A stretch of DNA of 7,983 bases from a virus. Taxonomy: Duplodnaviria; Heunggongvirae; Uroviricota; Caudoviricetes. Position 1 is the stretch's first letter. Each line of letters begins with the position of its first letter. The notes under the pieces were generated by a model that was not told the DNA's origin, did not search any database, and saw only the letters and a program-made list of their open reading frames with translations. The position numbers and the translations under genes are program-made. The stretch lies in the IMG/VR virus record IMGVR_UViG_2529293249_000010; one strand, given 5' to 3'. Below are positions 799-7,983 of this stretch, in pieces.

Positions 799-1105
799 AC
801 AGGAAAAAAATTTTTTTTCGAAAGAACTGTTCACACTGTTCACCTTTCTTTTTTCTCCTTTTATTTCAGTATGATAGGTGGTGAATAATGGGTGAAGGGT
901 GAACATTCGATTCTTCACCTCCGGCATTCTGCTGGTGTGACTCATACCGGTGATTAATCCCCCGTACTGAAAATCACACAGGGAGAAAAAAGTTTTTTTT
1001 GATTTGATTGTTCACACTGTTCACCTTTCGTTTTTCTCTTTTAATTTCAGTGTGATAACGGGTGAATATACGGTGAAGGGTGAACAGTGGATTGTTCACC
1101 TTCGG
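799..1105. repeat. crr: crr (cis replication region): two ~125-bp direct repeats (about 799-924 and 978-1105, period ~181 bp), each with alpha-binding type-I iterons
   Basis: Near-identical units. Iterons TGTTCACA/TGTTCACC at 828-835, 837-844 and 1009-1016, 1018-1025; inverted GGTGAA(CA) copies at 881-905 and 1062-1087; TTCTTCACC at 911-919 and TGTTCACC at 1093-1100. Each unit is preceded by an A/T homopolymer run. The same octamer recurs in the ori cluster at 5834-5938. Confidence 0.85.
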
Positions 1106-1118
1106 GGGATTCAGGGAT

Positions 1119-1144
1119 AAAAAAAAGACCGGCAGATGCCGGTC
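1119..1144 (-). terminator. Rho-independent terminator of the left (alpha) operon
   Basis: Stem GACCGGC (1127-1133) / GCCGGTC (1138-1144), loop AGAT, followed on the minus-strand transcript by U8 (plus-strand A8 at 1119-1126); 17 nt downstream of the alpha stop codon (1163-1161). Confidence 0.6.
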
Positions 1145-1160
1145 AGATGAGTCATGAGGG

Positions 1161-3494
1161 TCAGGTTGTCGCAGGGTCGTCACATTTTGGCAGCCAGTCG
1201 CCGTAGCTTTCCTCTTTCAGCGTCAGGTTGGTCTGTATCCCCTGTTTGGTATGGCGCTTCTCGTAATTCAGTCCGTATTCCTTCAGCATCACCGGCAGCC
1301 CCAACCCGAACATTTTCAGACTGAGTACATTCCGGTAGCCGTTTGCCTCCATGTAGGCCAGATAGGCGTGATAGAGGTATTTACGGTAATTACGCGGGAT
1401 GATACTGGCGTTCCCCATATACATGCCGCTGGTCTGCGGCAGGGTTTCCAGATAGCCGATAAAATCAAACGTCGGGTCGGCATCCCGTTTGATGTTCAGC
1501 GCCTCGTCTGAGTTCTGCTGGGACTGAAGCAGTGACCGGGCGAGCATCGGGTCGCTGAATTTCTGCATCAGGTGACGCACGATGACCGCCAGCTCGCGGG
1601 TGATTTTGTCCTTAAGCTGCGGGTCGCGCTCCTGCGGGGCTATCTGTTCCGGGAAGTGAATAATCACCCGCCGGCGTGACACGCCGCCGCTGCGGTCGGT
1701 GAAGCGCATCGGGTTATTGTTCACGGCCAGAATTACCGCCGGGATATGCGTGGAGTATGCATCCCGGTATTTCGGGTCAACGGACACCGCATCGCCGCCG
1801 GTGATGGCCTTGAGTCCGGCACCGTCGCCGCTCCATTTTTCCTGGTCCGGCAGGCGTATCAGTGAGAAGCCAGTTAACGCGGCACGTTCACGCGGGGATT
1901 CCAGCGTCTCAATGGTGGCCGACGTGGCGTTATCCTCCCCGGCCAGCAGGGTGGCTATTTCGGCCATGATACTTTTGCCGCTGCCGCCGGGACCGGTCAC
2001 CTCCAGAAAGAGCTGCCAGTCGTAGCGGTTTGCCAGCACCATAAACAGTGCGGCCAGAATTACGTCGCGTTTTTCCGCACGACCACCGGCAGCACGGTCA
2101 AGCCAGCGCCAGAACGCGGGGGCGTGGGTTTCCAGCGTTTCCCCTTCCACCGGCGGGGTGAAATCCACATCGCACAGGGTACGCATCCAGTGTGACGGAC
2201 TGTGCGGGTGGAACGTGCCGTTCTGCGTGTCGAGCACGCCGTTACGAAAGCCAATCAGGCGGCGGGAGGGGGCTTCCTGCTGCGGAATAATCAGCTTCAG
2301 GGTGTCCACCACGGAGGCCACCTTCCCGGAGGAGAACGGCGCACGCAGACGCTGAAACAGCCCGGCCACATCCCGGGCAAAGTCCTGTGGCGGCAGCACC
2401 TTCCAGACACCATTTTCATAGCGGGACAGAAGCTGGCCGTTGGCATCGACCGCGAGCGCCTCGCCGTAATGCTCATAGATACGCATGGCCTTTTCGCTGG
2501 TACTCATGGCGGAAAACTCTGCTTCGCTCATGGTGTCGAACGGGCTTTCAGCCGGTGGCCGGATGGCATCATAAATGGCCTTACGGGTGGCCTCCCCGCC
2601 GTACTGCGTGAAGGCATCATTCCAGTCACCGAAGACCGGCGGCAGGGCAACAACACCTTCACACGCATCTGCGGCTGCGGCGGCTTTTTTCTGGCCGTCA
2701 CCGCTGAGGTCACGGTCTGCGGCAAGGACAATCTGACAGGCCGGATGCTTCTGCCGGGCAAGGCTGGCCAGAGAAAGGAGGTTCACGGAAGAAAGCGCCA
2801 CCATCACCGTTTCACCGGTCAGGTGATGTACGGTAAGTGCGGTCGCGTATCCCTCCGCTATCCACAGACGTTTTCCGGCCTGATTCTGTCCTTCAAGGGT
2901 GTGACAGGTGCCCCTGACCTGTCCGCCTTTCAGGGTGCGCTTACGGCCGTCAGCACTGATTAACTGAAGGTTAACCAGTTCGCCGCTGTCGTCATACAGT
3001 GGCACCACAAGGTCACCGGCACGCCAGCTCACGCCACCGGCTCTGTGTGTGCCGGTCAGCATCCGGCATTCCCGGCCGGGAAAGCCCTTGCGGGTCAGGT
3101 AGGCGTTACCGGTTCCGGGACGGGTTTTTGCCATCAGGGTTTGTGCCAGTGCGGCGGCGTTCTTCCGGGCAGCGTCTGTTTCAGCACCGGCGGCGGCCGT
3201 CACTGCCGGGTCAGCCGGGGGCAGGCTGCCGGTCACGGCAGCCACCTTTGCGGCCGCGTCGGACGGAGAGACACCAAACACCTTTTCAACCAGTTTCAGG
3301 CCGTCACCGGCACCACACTGATTGCAGTACCAGGTGCCGCGCCCCTCCCTGTCATCAAAACGGAAGCGGTCACTCCCGCCACAGACCGGACAGGGCTGAT
3401 GACGGTTTTTCAGCACCTGAATCCCCAGCGCCGGGAGAATACGCGGCCAGTGGCCGAGCGCATGGCTGACGGTGGCGGTTACGTTCATTTTCAT
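1161..3494 (-). CDS. alpha: Alpha: bifunctional DNA primase / helicase with C-terminal origin-binding domain (777 aa)
   Basis: 777-aa ORF, ATG at 3494 with GAAGGAG Shine-Dalgarno 8 nt upstream. N-terminal zinc ribbon CPVCGG...YCNQCG (residues 35-60); primase EGYATA motif (residues 214-219, nt 2838-2855); Walker A GPGGSGKS (nt 1971-1994). The iterons it should bind are present at crr and ori. Confidence 0.95.
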   Translation of the reverse strand: MKMNVTATVSHALGHWPRILPALGIQVLKNRHQPCPVCGGSDRFRFDDREGRGTWYCNQCGAGDGLKLVEKVFGVSPSDAAAKVAAVTGSLPPADPAVTAAAGAETDAARKNAAALAQTLMAKTRPGTGNAYLTRKGFPGRECRMLTGTHRAGGVSWRAGDLVVPLYDDSGELVNLQLISADGRKRTLKGGQVRGTCHTLEGQNQAGKRLWIAEGYATALTVHHLTGETVMVALSSVNLLSLASLARQKHPACQIVLAADRDLSGDGQKKAAAAADACEGVVALPPVFGDWNDAFTQYGGEATRKAIYDAIRPPAESPFDTMSEAEFSAMSTSEKAMRIYEHYGEALAVDANGQLLSRYENGVWKVLPPQDFARDVAGLFQRLRAPFSSGKVASVVDTLKLIIPQQEAPSRRLIGFRNGVLDTQNGTFHPHSPSHWMRTLCDVDFTPPVEGETLETHAPAFWRWLDRAAGGRAEKRDVILAALFMVLANRYDWQLFLEVTGPGGSGKSIMAEIATLLAGEDNATSATIETLESPRERAALTGFSLIRLPDQEKWSGDGAGLKAITGGDAVSVDPKYRDAYSTHIPAVILAVNNNPMRFTDRSGGVSRRRVIIHFPEQIAPQERDPQLKDKITRELAVIVRHLMQKFSDPMLARSLLQSQQNSDEALNIKRDADPTFDFIGYLETLPQTSGMYMGNASIIPRNYRKYLYHAYLAYMEANGYRNVLSLKMFGLGLPVMLKEYGLNYEKRHTKQGIQTNLTLKEESYGDWLPKCDDPATT

Positions 3495-3508
3495 GGTGTT
3501 GTTCTCCT

Positions 3509-3829
3509 TCAGTGCAGTACCGGCGCTTTTATGTGACGGGCACAGAGTTCATCCATCACAACCAGCCCGAGAAAGGACAGCGACGGCGCGGCCTTCAGGG
3601 GGCCGGATTCCATTAAATCTTCCAGCAGGGCACAGGCTATCTGACGCCCTTTTTCCTCACCGTGCTGGCGCAGATAAAAGCCTTCCAGCTCAGCGGCGAT
3701 GGCCGCCTCCAGTGATTCAAGGGTGAGATGCGGGTAGCGGTGCTGACGTTCGCACACGGTCAGCCAGGCACAGGCGACAGCGCGACGGTAAAGGGCTGCG
3801 CGTAAGACGGGCGGTAAGGGGGTTTTCAT
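3509..3829 (-). CDS. 106-aa conserved hypothetical protein of the left operon (position and length of P4 orf106); function unknown
   Basis: ATG at 3829 with GGAGG Shine-Dalgarno 7 nt upstream; TGA stop at 3511-3509 sits inside the alpha ribosome-binding site, 14 nt before the alpha ATG. No motif I can recognise. Confidence 0.75.
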
Positions 3830-3896
3830 TTGCTTTCCTCCCTGTGACAGATGACTGCATTCCGTGCCGGTTGCATTAACTGATAAGGCATATCTG

Positions 3897-3936
3897 CGTC
3901 TCCTGAAGACGTGCGTATCCCTGCGCGAATACGCAC
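3897..3936. other. Two adjacent hairpins in the 135-bp orf151-orf106 spacer (possible attenuator, processing site or antisense terminator)
   Basis: CGTCT (3897-3901) / AGACG (3907-3911) with a 5-nt loop; GTGCGTAT (3911-3918) / ATACGCAC (3929-3936) with a 10-nt loop. On the plus strand the second stem is followed by ATTTAATTTTT (3937-3947). This is the only sizeable non-coding gap in the otherwise coupled left operon. Confidence 0.4.
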
Positions 3937-3964
3937 ATTTAATTTTTCGGGTGTCGTTTTTTAA

Positions 3965-4420
3965 TTACAGATAATTGCGGTAACTGTTATCCGGGGTGAT
4001 TTCCGGGTCAGGCTCCGTGCGGGGAATTTCCCGCCATTCCCGCGCCACCGGTGCCGCCCGGCTGACCGGAACAGGGTCCTGCGGGTAAATATCCAGATAT
4101 TTCTCCCGCCATTTCTGTAATTCCGGGTCTCCGGCCATTTCTTTCAGTACCGCATGCCGGTTTACGGGGCTGCGTTTGAACAGGTCAGGACGGTCACAGG
4201 TAAATTCCCGCAGAAAACGCCCCAGCGGGATGTCTGTGGTGCGCCCGTCGGCGAGGATACGCACAAGGATACTGAATTTACGGCGGTACGGGTTCCAGAC
4301 AATTTCCGGGCAGCGGTACGGCATTTCCCACGGAATACCGTCTTCCAGAATGCCGACCACGGCCACATCGGGAAAACCGGCAGAACGGTAAATCTCACCG
4401 GGCTGGGGAAAATCAAACAT
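3965..4420 (-). CDS. 151-aa conserved hypothetical protein of the left operon (position and length of P4 orf151); function unknown
   Basis: ATG at 4420-4418; the upstream eps stop TGA (4415-4413) lies 2 nt inside this gene (ATGTTTGA), suggesting translational coupling. TAA stop at 3967-3965. Confidence 0.82.
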   Translation of the reverse strand: MFDFPQPGEIYRSAGFPDVAVVGILEDGIPWEMPYRCPEIVWNPYRRKFSILVRILADGRTTDIPLGRFLREFTCDRPDLFKRSPVNRHAVLKEMAGDPELQKWREKYLDIYPQDPVPVSRAAPVAREWREIPRTEPDPEITPDNSYRNYL

Positions 4421-4700
4421 GCGTCCTGTCTCCCCGGTCTTTCTGCTGGGCGAGAAAATCGCGGCACAGGCCTTTGGCTTTCAGCTCATTCAGCACAAAA
4501 TCAATATCTTCATTCAGGTAGCTGAAAATATGCGGAATGTAGAGCTGATGGAGGCCGGAGAGTTCACGGTGAATCAAATCACCCCCAACAAACTGGGATA
4601 CGGCGCTGGCGCGGTTGAGCTTATGGTAAGCCTCAATGCTGAGGTGTTCACGGGCGTCATGACGCGCTGAGACGGTCTGAGGGGCTTTTTTATTACGCAC
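4413..4700 (-). CDS. eps: Epsilon-like protein (95 aa, GTG start): candidate anti-repressor that derepresses the P2-type helper prophage
   Basis: No in-frame ATG exists downstream of the kil stop. GTG at 4700-4698 is preceded by GGAGG with a 6-nt spacer and gives exactly 95 codons; the kil stop TAA (4695-4693) lies 2 nt inside (GTGCGTAA). The coding-like region starts here, while the upstream part of the same frame is Cys/Pro/Trp-rich. Assignment to eps rests on position and recalled length. Confidence 0.68.
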
Positions 4701-4890
4701 GGGACACCTCCACCACCGGCAGACGGGCAGCAAGGGAGAGCACATAGTCACGGACAAGGGAACGGCGGGCGCTGCGTTCATCACCGGCGACGGTGCGAAG
4801 CATACAGATACGGGGATGACGGTCTGCGCGACGGACAGCCGCAAACACAAAGACAAATTCAGGGTGTGAGGGGGTAAGGGTCGTAGCCAT
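4693..4890 (-). CDS. kil: Kil (65 aa), first translated gene downstream of PLE; nested in-frame within eta
   Basis: ATG at 4890-4888 preceded by GGAGG (plus-strand CCTCC 4898-4902) with a 7-nt spacer; 65 codons; TAA at 4695-4693. The seqC element of the immunity leader (4899-4945) directly abuts this ribosome-binding site. Confidence 0.75.
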
Positions 4891-5292
4891 AAGGCAACCT
4901 CCGATAACAGCGTAAATGACGCTATCGCCGGAGTTTCCACGCTCGATGGCGATAGCCCAGACGGGGGTGGAAATACCGGCGTTATCGGAAACCGGCCAGC
5001 CCGGAGGCTGCCCCGCCTGAGCTACCATTGACTCTGCGGTATAATGAGCGGACGCGGGCAGAATGCACGGAGTGCCATTTGCTCGACTGACCACACACCA
5101 CACCATAATCTGGCGCTCTGTGGCGTTGATTGCGACACAAAAAAAGACGCATGGCGCGTCATATGTCGCCGATAACATACTCGGGTTTCCACGCCCGGCT
5201 GCCGATTTTGCGGCAGCGGAAAAACTATATCCGCAAATGCCGGAAAAAGGCAAGCCAGAAAAAGGAAGTTTTTGCAGAACAGGCATCATCAT
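4693..5292 (-). CDS. eta: Eta (about 197-199 aa), long ORF beginning upstream of PLE and ending as kil; translated from PLL transcripts
   Basis: Same frame as kil, open back to ATGATGATG (5292-5284), giving 199/198/197 aa. The vis stop TGA (5291-5289) is embedded in the triple ATG. The frame continues upstream to an ATG at 5337 (214 aa) that lies inside vis. It runs through the whole immunity leader, so it can only be translated from PLL read-through RNA. Confidence 0.55.
4899..4945 (-). promoter_or_regulatory. seqC: target of CI RNA in the left-operon leader, abutting the kil ribosome-binding site
   Basis: The transcript-strand sequence carries GCGUGGAAAC...GUUAUCGG, as does seqA; both blocks are complementary to the seqB region (4966-4988). 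Position is immediately 5' of the kil Shine-Dalgarno. Confidence 0.5.
4950..5020 (-). ncRNA. cI: CI immunity RNA (seqB region); boundaries approximate
   Basis: The plus strand at 4966-4988 reads GTGGAAATACCGGCGTTATCGG, so the minus-strand transcript carries CCGAUAAC...UUUCCAC, complementary to the GUGGAAAC and GUUAUCGG blocks of seqA and seqC. The region is GC-rich with several internal inverted repeats (for example CCGG...CCGG). Exact processed ends cannot be read from sequence. Confidence 0.5.
5165..5204 (-). promoter_or_regulatory. seqA: CI RNA target at about +13 to +52 of the PLE transcript
   Basis: The transcript-strand sequence CGGCAGCCGGGCGUGGAAACCCGAGUAUGUUAUCGGCGAC shares the GUGGAAAC and GUUAUCGG blocks with seqC. 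Confidence 0.5.
5224..5253 (-). promoter_or_regulatory. PLE, sigma70-type promoter of the left operon / immunity transcript
   Basis: On the minus strand TTGCCT (5253-5248) - 18-bp spacer - TATAGT (5229-5224); predicted start near 5217, just upstream of seqA and about 35 bp downstream of the vis stop. Confidence 0.5.
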
Positions 5293-5555
5293 GCGTCGTA
5301 CCCCCGTTTGCGTCCGGCAATGCGCCCGGCCATCCATGCGGTGACTTCAGAGTGCAGCCAGGCCACATTTTTACCGCCAAGACTCACCTGCGGCGGAAAT
5401 TCCCCCTTACGGATGAGTTCGTAGATGGTCGAGCGTGACAGGCCGCACAGGTGCATCACTTCCGGCAGACGTAAAAAACGCTCCTGCGTGATGTCCGGCA
5501 GCGGCATCAGTGGCGTCACAGGGGCGGGAGACGGGGAAGAAAAAACAGCTTGCAT
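5289..5555 (-). CDS. vis: Vis: AlpA/Vis-family helix-turn-helix regulator and excision factor (88 aa)
   Basis: ATG at 5555-5553 with GAGG 7 nt upstream. Core motif [49 protein letters not shown] is typical of the AlpA/Vis/Xis-like family. It is the first gene after PLL. An internal ATG at codon 17 is an alternative start. Confidence 0.85.
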
Positions 5556-5599
5556 CGGGCTACCTCGTTAATGTCCATACAGCACCGGATAAGTCCGTC

Positions 5600-5680
5600 C
5601 GGCTTCGGGTAGCGCTTTATTTTGTGAATATTTTCGGCAGACGCAACAGGGGGGATTTGTTCCGGCAGTCTTACAATGGC
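5600..5680 (-). promoter_or_regulatory. PLL late promoter region with a Delta/Ogr-type activator box TGT-N12-ACA
   Basis: Dyad TGTTCCGGCAGTCTTACA at 5658-5675, about 100 bp upstream of the vis ATG; a -55 placement would put the start near 5611. The -10 element is poor (AAAATA or TATTCA-like), as expected for an activator-dependent promoter. Confidence 0.42.
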
Positions 5681-5832
5681 TGTGTATTTTTTGTACATCA
5701 GCGCCAGATAGCTTTAAAACGCTCTGGAAGGAGCTGGAAAAAATTATAGTGAAATACAAATTGTTTTTTCTTATTTATTTCAGTGAATTAATAAAAATAA
5801 AAAGTAATAAACAGCACAAAAAGCCCATCAAC

Positions 5833-5938
5833 GGGTGAACAGTGGTGAACAGACGGTGAACAGTCATTACTGCGATTGTTCACCCTTTAACTTACTGTAT
5901 TACTTATCTTTTTTATTAAGGTGAACAGAGGTGAACAG
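5833..5938. other. ori: ori (origin of replication): cluster of six alpha-binding iterons flanked by A/T-rich DNA
   Basis: GGTGAACAG at 5834-5842, 5844-5852, 5855-5863, 5920-5928 and 5930-5938 (spaced 10-11 bp), plus inverted TGTTCACC at 5877-5884. Strongly A/T-rich flanks at 5760-5820 and 5886-5960. Same octamer as in crr, about 4.9 kb away. Confidence 0.82.
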
Positions 5939-6016
5939 TAAAATATAAAAAAACAAACAGTAAGCCGGTTTTTCCTGCGACCTTTTCCTGGCTTGCCGGT
6001 GTGAGGATGAGTCTCC

Positions 6017-6080
6017 TGTGTCAGGGCTGGCACATCTGCAATGCGTCGTGTTGTTGTCCGGTGTACGTCACAATTTTCTC
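6017..6080 (+). promoter_or_regulatory. Psid late promoter with a Delta/Ogr-type activator box TGT-N12-ACA
   Basis: Dyad TGTGTCAGGGCTGGCACA at 6017-6034; candidate -10 CACAAT at 6069-6074; sid Shine-Dalgarno GAGGAG at 6094-6099, 6 nt before the ATG. Confidence 0.48.
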
Positions 6081-6105
6081 AACCTGAAGTGACGAGGAGC
6101 CGAAA

Positions 6106-6840
6106 ATGTCTGACAACACCATCCCTGAATATCTGCAATCCGCGCTGGCACAACTGGAAAAGGCCAGAGCCGCCCATCTTGAGAACGCCCGTCTGATGGA
6201 TGAGACCGTCACGGCCATTGAACGGGCAGAGCAGGAAAAAAATGCGCTGGCGCAGGCCGACGGAAACGACGCTGACGACTGGCGCACGGCCTTTCGTGCA
6301 GCCGGTGGTGTCCTGAGCGACGAGCTGAAACAGCGCCACATTGAGCGCGTGGCACGCCGGGAGCTGGTACAGGAATATGACAATCTGGCCGTGGTGCTGA
6401 ATTTTGAACGCGAACGCCTGAAAGGGGCGTGTGACAGCACGGCCACCGCCTACCGGAAGGCACATCATCACCTGCTGAGTCTGTATGCAGAGCATGAGCT
6501 GGAACACGCCCTGAATGAAACCTGTGAGGCGCTTGTCCGGGCAATGCATCTGAGCATTCTGGTACAGGAAAATCCGCTCGCCAACACCACCGGCCATCAG
6601 GGCTACGTCGCACCGGAAAAGGCTGTCATGCAGCAGGTGAAATCATCGCTGGAACAGAAAATTAAACAGATGCAAATCAGCCTCACCGGCGAGCCGGTTC
6701 TCCGGCTGACCGGACTGTCAGCGGCAACACTTCCTCACATGGATTATGAGGTGGCAGGCACACCGGCACAGCGCAAGGTGTGGCAGGACAAAATAGACCA
6801 GCAGGGAGCAGTGCTTAAGGCCAGAGGACTGCTGTCATGA
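6106..6840 (+). CDS. sid: Sid: external scaffolding / capsid size-determination protein (244 aa)
   Basis: 244-aa ORF with a strong Shine-Dalgarno; predicted to be highly alpha-helical and charged. Length and position (first gene of the Psid operon, upstream of delta and psu) match P4 Sid. Confidence 0.93.
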   Translation: MSDNTIPEYLQSALAQLEKARAAHLENARLMDETVTAIERAEQEKNALAQADGNDADDWRTAFRAAGGVLSDELKQRHIERVARRELVQEYDNLAVVLNFERERLKGACDSTATAYRKAHHHLLSLYAEHELEHALNETCEALVRAMHLSILVQENPLANTTGHQGYVAPEKAVMQQVKSSLEQKIKQMQISLTGEPVLRLTGLSAATLPHMDYEVAGTPAQRKVWQDKIDQQGAVLKARGLLS

Positions 6841-7337
6841 TTTACTGCCCGTCGTGTGGACATGTTGCTCACACCCGCCGCGCACATTTCATGGACGATG
6901 GCACCAAGATAATGATTGCACAGTGCCGGAATATTTATTGCTCTGCGACATTTGAAGCGAGTGAAAGCTTTTTCTCTGACAGTAAAGATTCAGGAATGGA
7001 ATACATTTCAGGCAAACAGAGATACCGCGATTCACTGACGTCAGCCTCCGGCAGTATGAAACGCCCGAAAAGAATGCTTGTTACCGGATATTGTTGTCGG
7101 AGATGTAAAGGCCTTGCACTGTCAAGAACATCGCGGCGTCTGTCTCAGGAAGTCACCGAGCGTTTTTATGTGTGCACGGATCCGGGCTGTGGTCTGGTGT
7201 TTAAAACGCTTCAGACCATCACCCGCTTCATTGTCCGCCCGGTCACGCCGGACGAACTGGCAGAACGCCTGCATGAAAAACAGGAACTGCCGCCAGTACG
7301 CTTAAAAACACAATCATATTCGCTGCGTCTGGAATGA
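6837..7337 (+). CDS. delta: Delta: late-gene transcriptional activator, tandem Ogr-type zinc-finger protein (166 aa)
   Basis: ATG overlaps the sid stop (ATGA at 6837-6840). Two Ogr-like modules, each with C-x2-C ... C-x4-C: CPSCG...CRNIYC and CRRCKG...CTDPGC. Confidence 0.93.
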   Translation: MIYCPSCGHVAHTRRAHFMDDGTKIMIAQCRNIYCSATFEASESFFSDSKDSGMEYISGKQRYRDSLTSASGSMKRPKRMLVTGYCCRRCKGLALSRTSRRLSQEVTERFYVCTDPGCGLVFKTLQTITRFIVRPVTPDELAERLHEKQELPPVRLKTQSYSLRLE

Positions 7338-7410
7338 GGGCTGCCGGTTAACCCCGGCCGTCGCCGCACACCGTATTTTTATTCTTCAGCATGATGAGAA
7401 AGAGATAACG

Positions 7411-7983
7411 ATGGAGAGCACAGCCTTACAGCAGGCCTTTGACACCTGTCAGAATAACAAAGCAGCATGGCTGCAACGCAAAAATGAGCTGGCTGCGGCC
7501 GAACAGGAATATCTGCGGCTTCTGTCCGGGGAAGGCAGAAACGTCAGTCGCCTGGACGAATTACGCAATATTATCGAAGTCAGAAAATGGCAGGTGAATC
7601 AGGCCGCCGGTCGTTATATTCGTTCGCATGAAGCCGTTCAGCACATCAGCATCCGCGACCGGCTGAATGATTTTATGCAGCAGCACGGCACAGCACTGGC
7701 GGCGGCACTGGCACCGGAGCTGATGGGATACAGTGAGCTGACGGCCATTGCCCGAAACTGTGCCATACAGCGTGCCACAGATGCCCTGCGTGAAGCCCTT
7801 CTGTCCTGGCTTGCGAAGGGGGAAAAAATTAATTATTCCGCACAGGATAGTGACATTTTAACGACCATCGGATTCAGGCCTGACGCGGCTTCGGTGGATG
7901 ACAGCCGTGAAAAATTCACCCCTGCGCAGAACATGATTTTTTCGCGTAAAAGTGCGCAACTGGAATCACATCAGTCTGTGTAA
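7411..7983 (+). CDS. psu: Psu: polarity suppression protein (Rho antagonist / capsid decoration), 190 aa
   Basis: 190-aa ORF with a purine-rich ribosome-binding site (AAGAGA, 7400-7405); TAA stop is the last three bases of the window. Length and position after delta match P4 Psu. Confidence 0.92.
   Translation: MESTALQQAFDTCQNNKAAWLQRKNELAAAEQEYLRLLSGEGRNVSRLDELRNIIEVRKWQVNQAAGRYIRSHEAVQHISIRDRLNDFMQQHGTALAAALAPELMGYSELTAIARNCAIQRATDALREALLSWLAKGEKINYSAQDSDILTTIGFRPDAASVDDSREKFTPAQNMIFSRKSAQLESHQSV

Follow-up and report, generated by a model that had tools for sequence, protein, structure and literature searches.

Gene content of the window and features of its leader

The stretch of DNA that we have analysed (7,983 nt, hereafter the window) is 97.3% identical to P4 (X51522) over positions 805-7983, and its genes follow one another as in P4. 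The leader (4880-5260) shares 90.3% identity with that of P4 and occupies the P4 position in the left operon, in which vis and then eta/kil, epsilon, orf151, cnr and alpha are found. This region is a homologue of the immunity leader of P4. For the elements of the immunity leader, coordinates are given on the minus strand, the strand of the transcript. The genes and features of the locus are as follows.

5555-5289: Vis/AlpA
4693-4890, minus strand: kil, 65 aa, Icd-like (NCBIfam phage_ICD_like, 76.1 bits)
epsilon: Pfam Derepression
cnr: DUF5375
alpha primase: 777 aa
5224-5253, minus strand: PLE-like sigma-70 promoter, TTGCCT, 18 nt, TATAGT (pattern match)
5217-5198, minus strand: 5' leader hairpin 1, GCUGCCG/CGGCAGC (Rfam isrK and c4-a1b1 consensus structure; folds)
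5197-5182, minus strand: 5' leader hairpin 2, CGGG/CCCG, with seqA box a in its loop (isrK and c4-a1b1 consensus structure; folds)
5192-5186, minus strand: seqA box a, GUGGAAA, complementary to CI 4973-4967
5176-5169, minus strand: seqA box b, GUUAUCGG, complementary to the CI loop at 4988-4981
5139-5160, minus strand: intrinsic terminator, GACGCG-CCA-UGCGUC plus U7 (terminator scan; 3' hairpin of the Rfam isrK model)
4945-5032, minus strand: CI antisense RNA gene (Rfam RF01695, 77.9 bits; gathering score 45)
4990-4981, minus strand: seqB box b', CCGAUAAC plus UU, the entire 10-nt loop of CI hairpin 2
4973-4967, minus strand: seqB box a', UUUCCAC, in a single-stranded linker of the CI RNA
4921-4956, minus strand: covarying hairpin, GCUAUCGCC (4956-4948) with GGCGAUAGC (4929-4921) (covariation)
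4940-4934, minus strand: seqC box a, GUGGAAA
4931-4927, minus strand: seqC CCGGC, complementary to CI GCCGG at 4980-4976
4908-4901, minus strand: seqC box b, GUUAUCGG, overlapping the kil Shine-Dalgarno (SD) sequence GGAGG (4902-4898)

The P4 homology ends at window position 805, and positions 1-804 form a different integrase end. An ORF in this part (438-1, minus strand) encodes the N-terminal part of a tyrosine integrase (Arm-DNA-bind_3, Phage_int_M) unlike P4 int, and its stretch is 92-93% identical to Klebsiella prophage records. The window element probably uses a different attachment site than P4. No tRNA gene was found in the 7,983-nt window.

Promoter, seqA and terminator

The TTGCCT/TATAGT site was the only promoter-like site within 4600-5800, and a GGCTTGC...TATAG motif is kept at the same place in most of the related leaders. 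Downstream of this candidate promoter lies seqA, complementary to seqB and followed by the intrinsic terminator, in agreement with the Rfam consensus: the c4-a1b1 model matched 5230-5178 (51.5 bits) and the isrK model matched seqA plus the terminator (5217-5140, 74.7 bits), both above the gathering score. The terminator after seqA is the positional equivalent of P4 t1.

One fold, in which seqA box a paired with the 3' half of the terminator, suggested an anti-terminator model with CI binding freeing t1. This model was unsupported: the terminator was already present in the MFE fold with slightly different boundaries, the probability of the t1 stem was 0.92 when free and 0.96 with the boxes masked, and P4 has not kept the box b hairpin. 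The spacer between t1 and CI (5033-5138, minus strand) is, according to the alignment gaps, about 45-60 nt longer in P4-type leaders, including that of the window, than in most other relatives.

Structure of the CI RNA

The 88-nt CI segment (5032-4945), which corresponds to the Rfam C4/CI antisense RNA match, folded with -47.2 kcal/mol (z = -5.1) into a 16-bp basal stem (5026-4951) bearing two hairpins. It is a structured RNA of the C4 family, and its predicted fold exposes both recognition boxes: box b' forms the 10-nt loop UUCCGAUAAC of hairpin 2 (4990-4981) and box a' is single-stranded. The basal stem is substrate-like for processing and a 3' GCCA tail is visible; the mature CI RNA is predicted to have a length of about 76-80 nt. 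The Rfam families C4, isrK and c4-a1b1 have been equated with P4 CI RNA and seqA (PMC3632133, PMC4825925). For seqC, no Rfam family was matched, even at E <= 1.

Complementarity between seqB and its two targets

On the minus strand, GTGGAAAC occurs at 5192-5185 in seqA and at 4940-4933 in seqC, and GTTATCGG at 5176-5169 in seqA and at 4908-4901 in seqC. Between the two blocks lie the complements CCGATAAC (4988-4981) and TTTCCAC (4973-4967). Over the 7,983 bases of the window, GTTATCGG or its complement was counted three times, always within the seqA, seqB and seqC blocks, against 0.14 expected, and none of 200 shuffles reached this count. The corresponding figures for GTGGAAAC were two occurrences against 0.33 expected, with 10 of 200 shuffles reaching two.

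The duplexes obtained with RNAduplex had energies of -34.5 kcal/mol for seqB:seqA (z = -3.2) and -33.1 kcal/mol for seqB:seqC (z = -3.9), with 6 and 1 of 1000 dinucleotide shuffles of the target being as good, respectively. Within the window these z-scores are only moderate, a consequence of the high GC content of the region. What decides in favour of the pairings is the comparative evidence and not the window-only duplex energies.

Covariation across related loci

Related loci were collected with the invariant CI core GGCGGGGCAGCYTYCGGGCTGGCCGGT by scanning one-genome-per-species contigs and IMG/VR. Together with five E. coli loci, P4 and the window, the set comprised at least 237 usable loci, whose hosts, among the matches listed, were mostly Enterobacterales, with some Ralstonia, Cupriavidus, Aeromonas and Aquitalea. 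At least 14 box a variants, at least 39 box b variants and at least 76 combinations of the two were present in the 237 loci among the matches listed. The reverse complement of a locus' own box a' was perfect in seqA in 227 and in seqC in 228 of the 237 loci, and that of its own box b' in 163 and 178, respectively, whereas boxes taken from other loci matched perfectly in 0.3-1.6% of the trials (all among the matches listed).

The covariation between seqA and seqB was counted on an alignment (A3) with one sequence for each of the 76 types, among the matches listed. The paired cells amounted to 94.3% of 1135, and changes on both sides were seen in 14 of the 15 pairs. There were 323 compensatory cells compared with 89 after shuffling, and the covariation was 0.749 compared with 0.21, with a maximum of 0.174 when the strands were slid. 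Taken separately, box a and box a' were paired in 96% of the cells, with both-side changes in 6 of 7 pairs, and box b and box b' in about 93%, with both-side changes in 8 of 8.

For seqB and seqC we have used an alignment (A4) anchored on the SD GGAG, and hence independent of complementarity; five sequences without GGAG were dropped and 71 were left. Among the matches listed, 92.1% of the cells were paired, with 307 compensatory cells (83 when shuffled) and a covariation of 0.566 (0.20 when shuffled; slid maximum 0.126). The helix of seqC box a and CCGGC with CI was paired in 94.7% of the cells and had six pairs with both-side changes, and the six variable positions of seqC box b were compensatory in 23-41 of the 71 sequences (among the matches listed). 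On the plain MAFFT alignment A3, seqB:seqC box b appeared to pair at 51-60%. This low value was an alignment artefact with box b shifted by one column, since the window is longer by 1 nt ahead of the SD and shorter by 1 nt behind it. The pairing of seqB with seqA and seqC is under selection, and covariation is blind to whether it takes place in trans or within a transcript.

The internal fold of CI was also conserved, with 99.7% of the cells paired in A4 (71 variants, among the matches listed). It showed 45 compensatory cells against 12.5 in shuffles and a covariation of 0.190 against 0.14, the best slid control giving 0.075. Six basal-stem pairs had compensatory changes among these variants; hairpins 1 and 2 were largely fixed by the search pattern, which makes covariation there uninformative.

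Covariation was also found in the hairpin 4956-4921. Among the matches listed it was paired in 96.4% of the cells, with changes on both sides in 6 of 9 pairs and 61 compensatory cells compared with 15 in shuffles; one of its covarying pairs is located outside the CI stem. Its 5' strand, GCUAUCGCC, consists of the 3' strand of the CI basal stem and the tail, and seqC box a falls in its loop. Hence, this hairpin and the CI basal stem are mutually exclusive on one molecule. The hairpin may have to do with CI processing or with the non-canonical terminator t4.

Overlap of seqC with the kil Shine-Dalgarno sequence

The first translated gene past the leader is kil, with its ATG at 4890-4888. Its product is identical to P4 Kil, and it is in frame with the eta ORF (5337-4693), which is open throughout. 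At the start of kil, seqC is complementary to seqB with the SD inside the complementarity: the terminal GG of box b (4902-4901) is formed by the first two G's of the SD, and the full 10-nt CI loop is able to pair with 4908-4899 in the window, covering GGAG. In the 71 sequences of the SD-anchored alignment (among the matches listed), the SD GG was paired in 97% with the CC of the CI loop, which is invariant, and the SD A paired with a U of the loop in 57.

The earlier note had proposed that the kil ribosome-binding site is occluded by pairing to seqC, and had described seqC as ending 1-2 nt before GGAGG. The proposed occlusion emerged stronger than it had been put, with the SD lying within the complementarity. 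The described end of seqC has to be corrected, given that seqC overlaps the SD and that the range assigned to it in the same note (to 4899) already takes in most of this sequence. Direct SD occlusion by CI pairing is supported better than that description implied. It parallels the c4/icd arrangement of P1, and this fits with the Icd-like nature of Kil.

The MFE fold of the seqC region in the window contained an anti-SD pairing between CUCC (4932-4929) and GGAG (4902-4899), together with GAUAGC:GCUAU. The inner stem of this anti-SD hairpin (4899-4932, minus strand) is formed by GAUAGCGU/ACGCUGUU within the same fold. The inner helix was paired in 67% across variants, the SD itself being fixed by the anchoring of the alignment.

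In the eta frame there are three consecutive ATGs at 5292-5284 (codons 16-18), from which products of 199, 198 or 197 aa would start, sizes that presumably agree with the P4 description. These ATGs (5284-5292, minus strand) overlap the vis stop codon (GCATGATGATG), and this overlap suggests that vis and eta may be translationally coupled on late-promoter transcripts. Pfam Phage_ASH matched aa 37-161 of the ORF 5337-4693 with 83.8 bits. The segment given as Phage_ASH or, by PGAP, as "ash family protein" (4855-5229, minus strand) is the RNA-immunity region translated in the eta frame; the PGAP labels for the region were "Icd-like" or "ash family" protein and nothing else. Since the codons of the boxes change non-synonymously, the conservation of Phage_ASH may largely reflect RNA constraints.

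An immunity allele different from that of P4

The two specificity boxes of the window differ from those of P4. Box a is GUGGAAA in the window and GUGAGAA in P4 (2 of 7 positions differ), box b is GUUAUCGG and UUCACAGG, respectively (4 of 8 positions differ), and seqB carries CCGAUAAC and UUUCCAC instead of CCUGUGAA and UUCUCAC. The changes are compensatory and matched in all three copies, and the boxes are neither identical to those of P4 nor compatible with them, as P4 homoimmunity would have it. The changes are also concentrated: half of the 44 differences between the two leaders (22) affect the 48 box nucleotides, and the remaining 22 are spread over 333 nucleotides elsewhere (Fisher p = 4e-11). 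The spacing next to the SD is shifted by 1 nt between the window and P4.

In the eta frame the box changes are non-synonymous (GRGNPSMLS in the window, GRENPSNSQ in P4), while Kil is unchanged. The pairing was nevertheless kept, and therefore selection acts on base pairing and not on the protein. The summed box energies of the cognate combinations were -42.3 kcal/mol for the window and -42.6 kcal/mol for P4, and those of the cross pairs were -12.2 and -16.5 kcal/mol, about 26-30 weaker. Since both boxes differ compensatorily from those of P4, the element would be expected to show immunity towards itself and none towards P4, nor would P4 be immune to the element. Based on these calculated energies, the window element is probably heteroimmune to P4.

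These results bear out most of the earlier note. The seqA, seqB and seqC blocks that it had delimited were all found at their places on the minus strand, and the complementarity that it had claimed between seqB and the other two is strongly backed by covariation. The calculation of seqB duplex energies and the comparison with P4 alleles, both of which it had suggested, gave the values reported above and the same elements with matched box differences, respectively. Its assignment of the leader to the P4 immunity architecture agrees with the homology to P4, with the three Rfam families and with the comparative pairings. This reading is correct. The system itself is already known, its workings having been clear since the 1990s, and curated Rfam models exist for it.

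Distribution of the leader and reassortment of the boxes

Of 5426 complete E. coli genomes, 2670 contained relatives of the leader, and 1879 of the 5426, more than a third, carried a relative of the window. In 96 E. coli records the leader allele of the window recurred with an identity of at least 99%, and the leader of E. coli 504237 (NZ_CP025862) is 100% identical to it. None of the complete E. coli genomes was 100% identical over the whole window, for which the best match was an IMG/VR contig (L195, 99.7%).

E. coli IHE3034 combines box a of the window with box b of P4. Among the matches listed, box a of the window was found with at least 13 box b variants, and at least 157 box-pair quadruples had all four combinations. 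To judge from these sequences, boxes a and b reassort among P4-like loci. Two IMG/VR contigs (L174 and L137) are about 98% identical to the window on both sides of positions 5017-5139 (the t1-CI spacer and the 5' half of CI), but not across them. This mosaic breakpoint is consistent with a recombinational exchange of immunity modules.

Mode of action and alternative explanations

In P4, the CI RNA is processed from the leader transcript and pairs with seqA and seqC, which leads to premature termination (PMC4825925), and P4 CI RNA is among the substrates of RNase P (PMC5499578). It is very probable that this region of the window serves a P4-like satellite prophage as its immunity module, with a CI RNA acting on seqA and seqC as it does in P4. 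A constitutive PLE-type promoter (about 5253-5224) would give rise to a leader with seqA, t1, the CI RNA gene, seqC and kil, and the CI segment would fold and, by homology with P4, be excised to give a stable RNA some 76-80 nt long. The CI loop (box b') and the adjacent single strand (box a') would then pair in trans with seqA and seqC of new transcripts. Pairing with seqA would be linked to termination at t1, resulting in CI autoregulation, and pairing with seqC would cover the kil SD and leave kil untranslated. Transcription would halt before the replication genes epsilon, orf151, cnr and alpha. On transcripts from an upstream late promoter, eta would be translated through the whole region, which would thereby escape from control. 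We infer CI processing, its action in trans and the choice of terminators from the P4 literature, and superinfection immunity through CI-driven premature termination would likewise follow the P4 example.

For P4 itself, work attributed to Forti (of 1995, 1999 and 2002), Sabbattini (of 1995) and Briani (of 2000) reportedly established that RNase P and 3' trimming generate a stable, trans-acting RNA of about 79 nt, and that pairing with seqA raises termination at t1, so that CI is autoregulated. The same work is said to have found that termination at t4 and at the Rho-dependent timm blocks the replication genes, and that eta translation from the late promoter PLL bypasses immunity. The main P4 lysogeny terminator was, reportedly according to Briani and colleagues in 2000, t4 and not the Rho-dependent site inside kil; therefore, occlusion of the SD may account for the mechanism only in part.

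All the elements lie on one transcript, and the leader could in principle switch between alternative folds within a single molecule, without a diffusible CI RNA. The folds envisaged are seqB with seqA, seqB with seqC, and the CI stem against the downstream hairpin. Such an attenuator acting in cis would be compatible with the covariation, which is blind to cis and trans, with the covarying hairpin, whose formation excludes the CI basal stem, and with the MFE fold of the seqC region, in which CUCC pairs with the SD in cis. We nevertheless regard it as improbable, given that the CI fold is very stable and conserved, that the boxes are laid out as in a trans-acting antisense RNA, and that the homologous P4 CI RNA and the C4 RNA of P1/P7 are antisense RNAs processed by RNase P.

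The module could also be a relic in a defective prophage, with no regulation left. Every box pair is perfect, however, intact copies of CI, t1, the SD, kil, eta, epsilon, cnr and alpha are present, and the same leader recurs at 99% identity or more in the 96 E. coli records, which makes an inactive relic very improbable even though many genomic P4-like elements are cryptic, the integrase end is unlike that of P4 and the whole window is found at 100% identity in none of the complete E. coli genomes. That the repeats are peptide motifs of the overlapping eta/Ash frame and not RNA signals is hardly credible: the ORF is intact across the whole region and has its Phage_ASH match, but repeats of coding origin would not account for one block being the reverse complement of the others, the non-synonymous box changes relative to P4 preserve base pairing, and hundreds of compensatory cells occur across the variants (among the matches listed).

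Relation to known immunity systems

The CI-based module of the window has the same order of promoter, seqA, t1, cI, seqC and kil/eta as P4 and the same CI fold, and it differs in both specificity boxes and in the integrase allele. What is specific to the window is an immunity allele unlike that of P4 in both boxes; the rest of the system is already known. The P4-like retronphage phiR73 is reportedly heteroimmune to P4 through the cI region (Sabbattini and colleagues in 1996, Virology 216:389, as cited in PMC7567579). It is, like the element of the window, a P4 relative with an immunity specificity unlike that of P4, which for the window is a prediction.

P1 and P7 are a further documented heteroimmune pair. 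The C4 RNA of their ImmI system shares the Rfam clan CL00128 with the CI of the window, and recognition is likewise by two boxes, with an upstream target a1/b1 and a downstream target a2/b2 over the ribosome-binding site of an Icd-like gene. RNase P processing is common to C4 and P4 CI. C4 controls icd-ant, with the ant antirepressor downstream, whereas the window has epsilon, orf151, cnr and the alpha primase instead; in addition, the P4 RNA is the primary immunity factor and the C4 of P1/P7 a secondary one. The module of the window works like ImmI without being a member of it.

The leader of phiKO2 shows about 77% DNA similarity over half of the window leader. In the anti-immunity region of N15 and phiKO2, a small processed RNA is said to control icd-antirepressor, as Ravin and colleagues reportedly described in 1999. 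Both differ from the window in having other downstream genes and in being linear plasmid-prophages. The RNA system used by N15 is structurally similar (PMC3632133). The seqA RNA is a structural homologue of IsrK of Salmonella Gifsy-1, for which STnc1160 has been suggested as a CI-like partner (PMC4825925). IsrK is both a small RNA and an mRNA that activates orf45-anrP translation. To our knowledge, no IsrK-like role is known for P4 seqA.

A broader proposal can be put forward tentatively, and we consider it rather doubtful: boxes a and b would constitute a recombining, two-box RNA "immunity code" that is always re-matched in all three copies and gives rise to many mutually heteroimmune types, including that of the window, with the hairpin 4956-4921 serving as t4 or as a choice between processing and termination. 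Neither the immunity code nor the t4-hairpin idea was found in the literature examined, and both may stand in the P4 papers of 1995-2002.

Significance

The immunity module of the window opens no new biological question. Its value is mainly one of annotation. The region usually bears nothing but a protein label, while the conserved information is RNA, namely the CI antisense RNA and its two targets. Recognition of the allele would allow cross-immunity to be predicted among co-resident or incoming P4-like satellites, and the natural compensatory variants of the boxes offer a large and ready resource for studying and engineering orthogonal antisense regulators.
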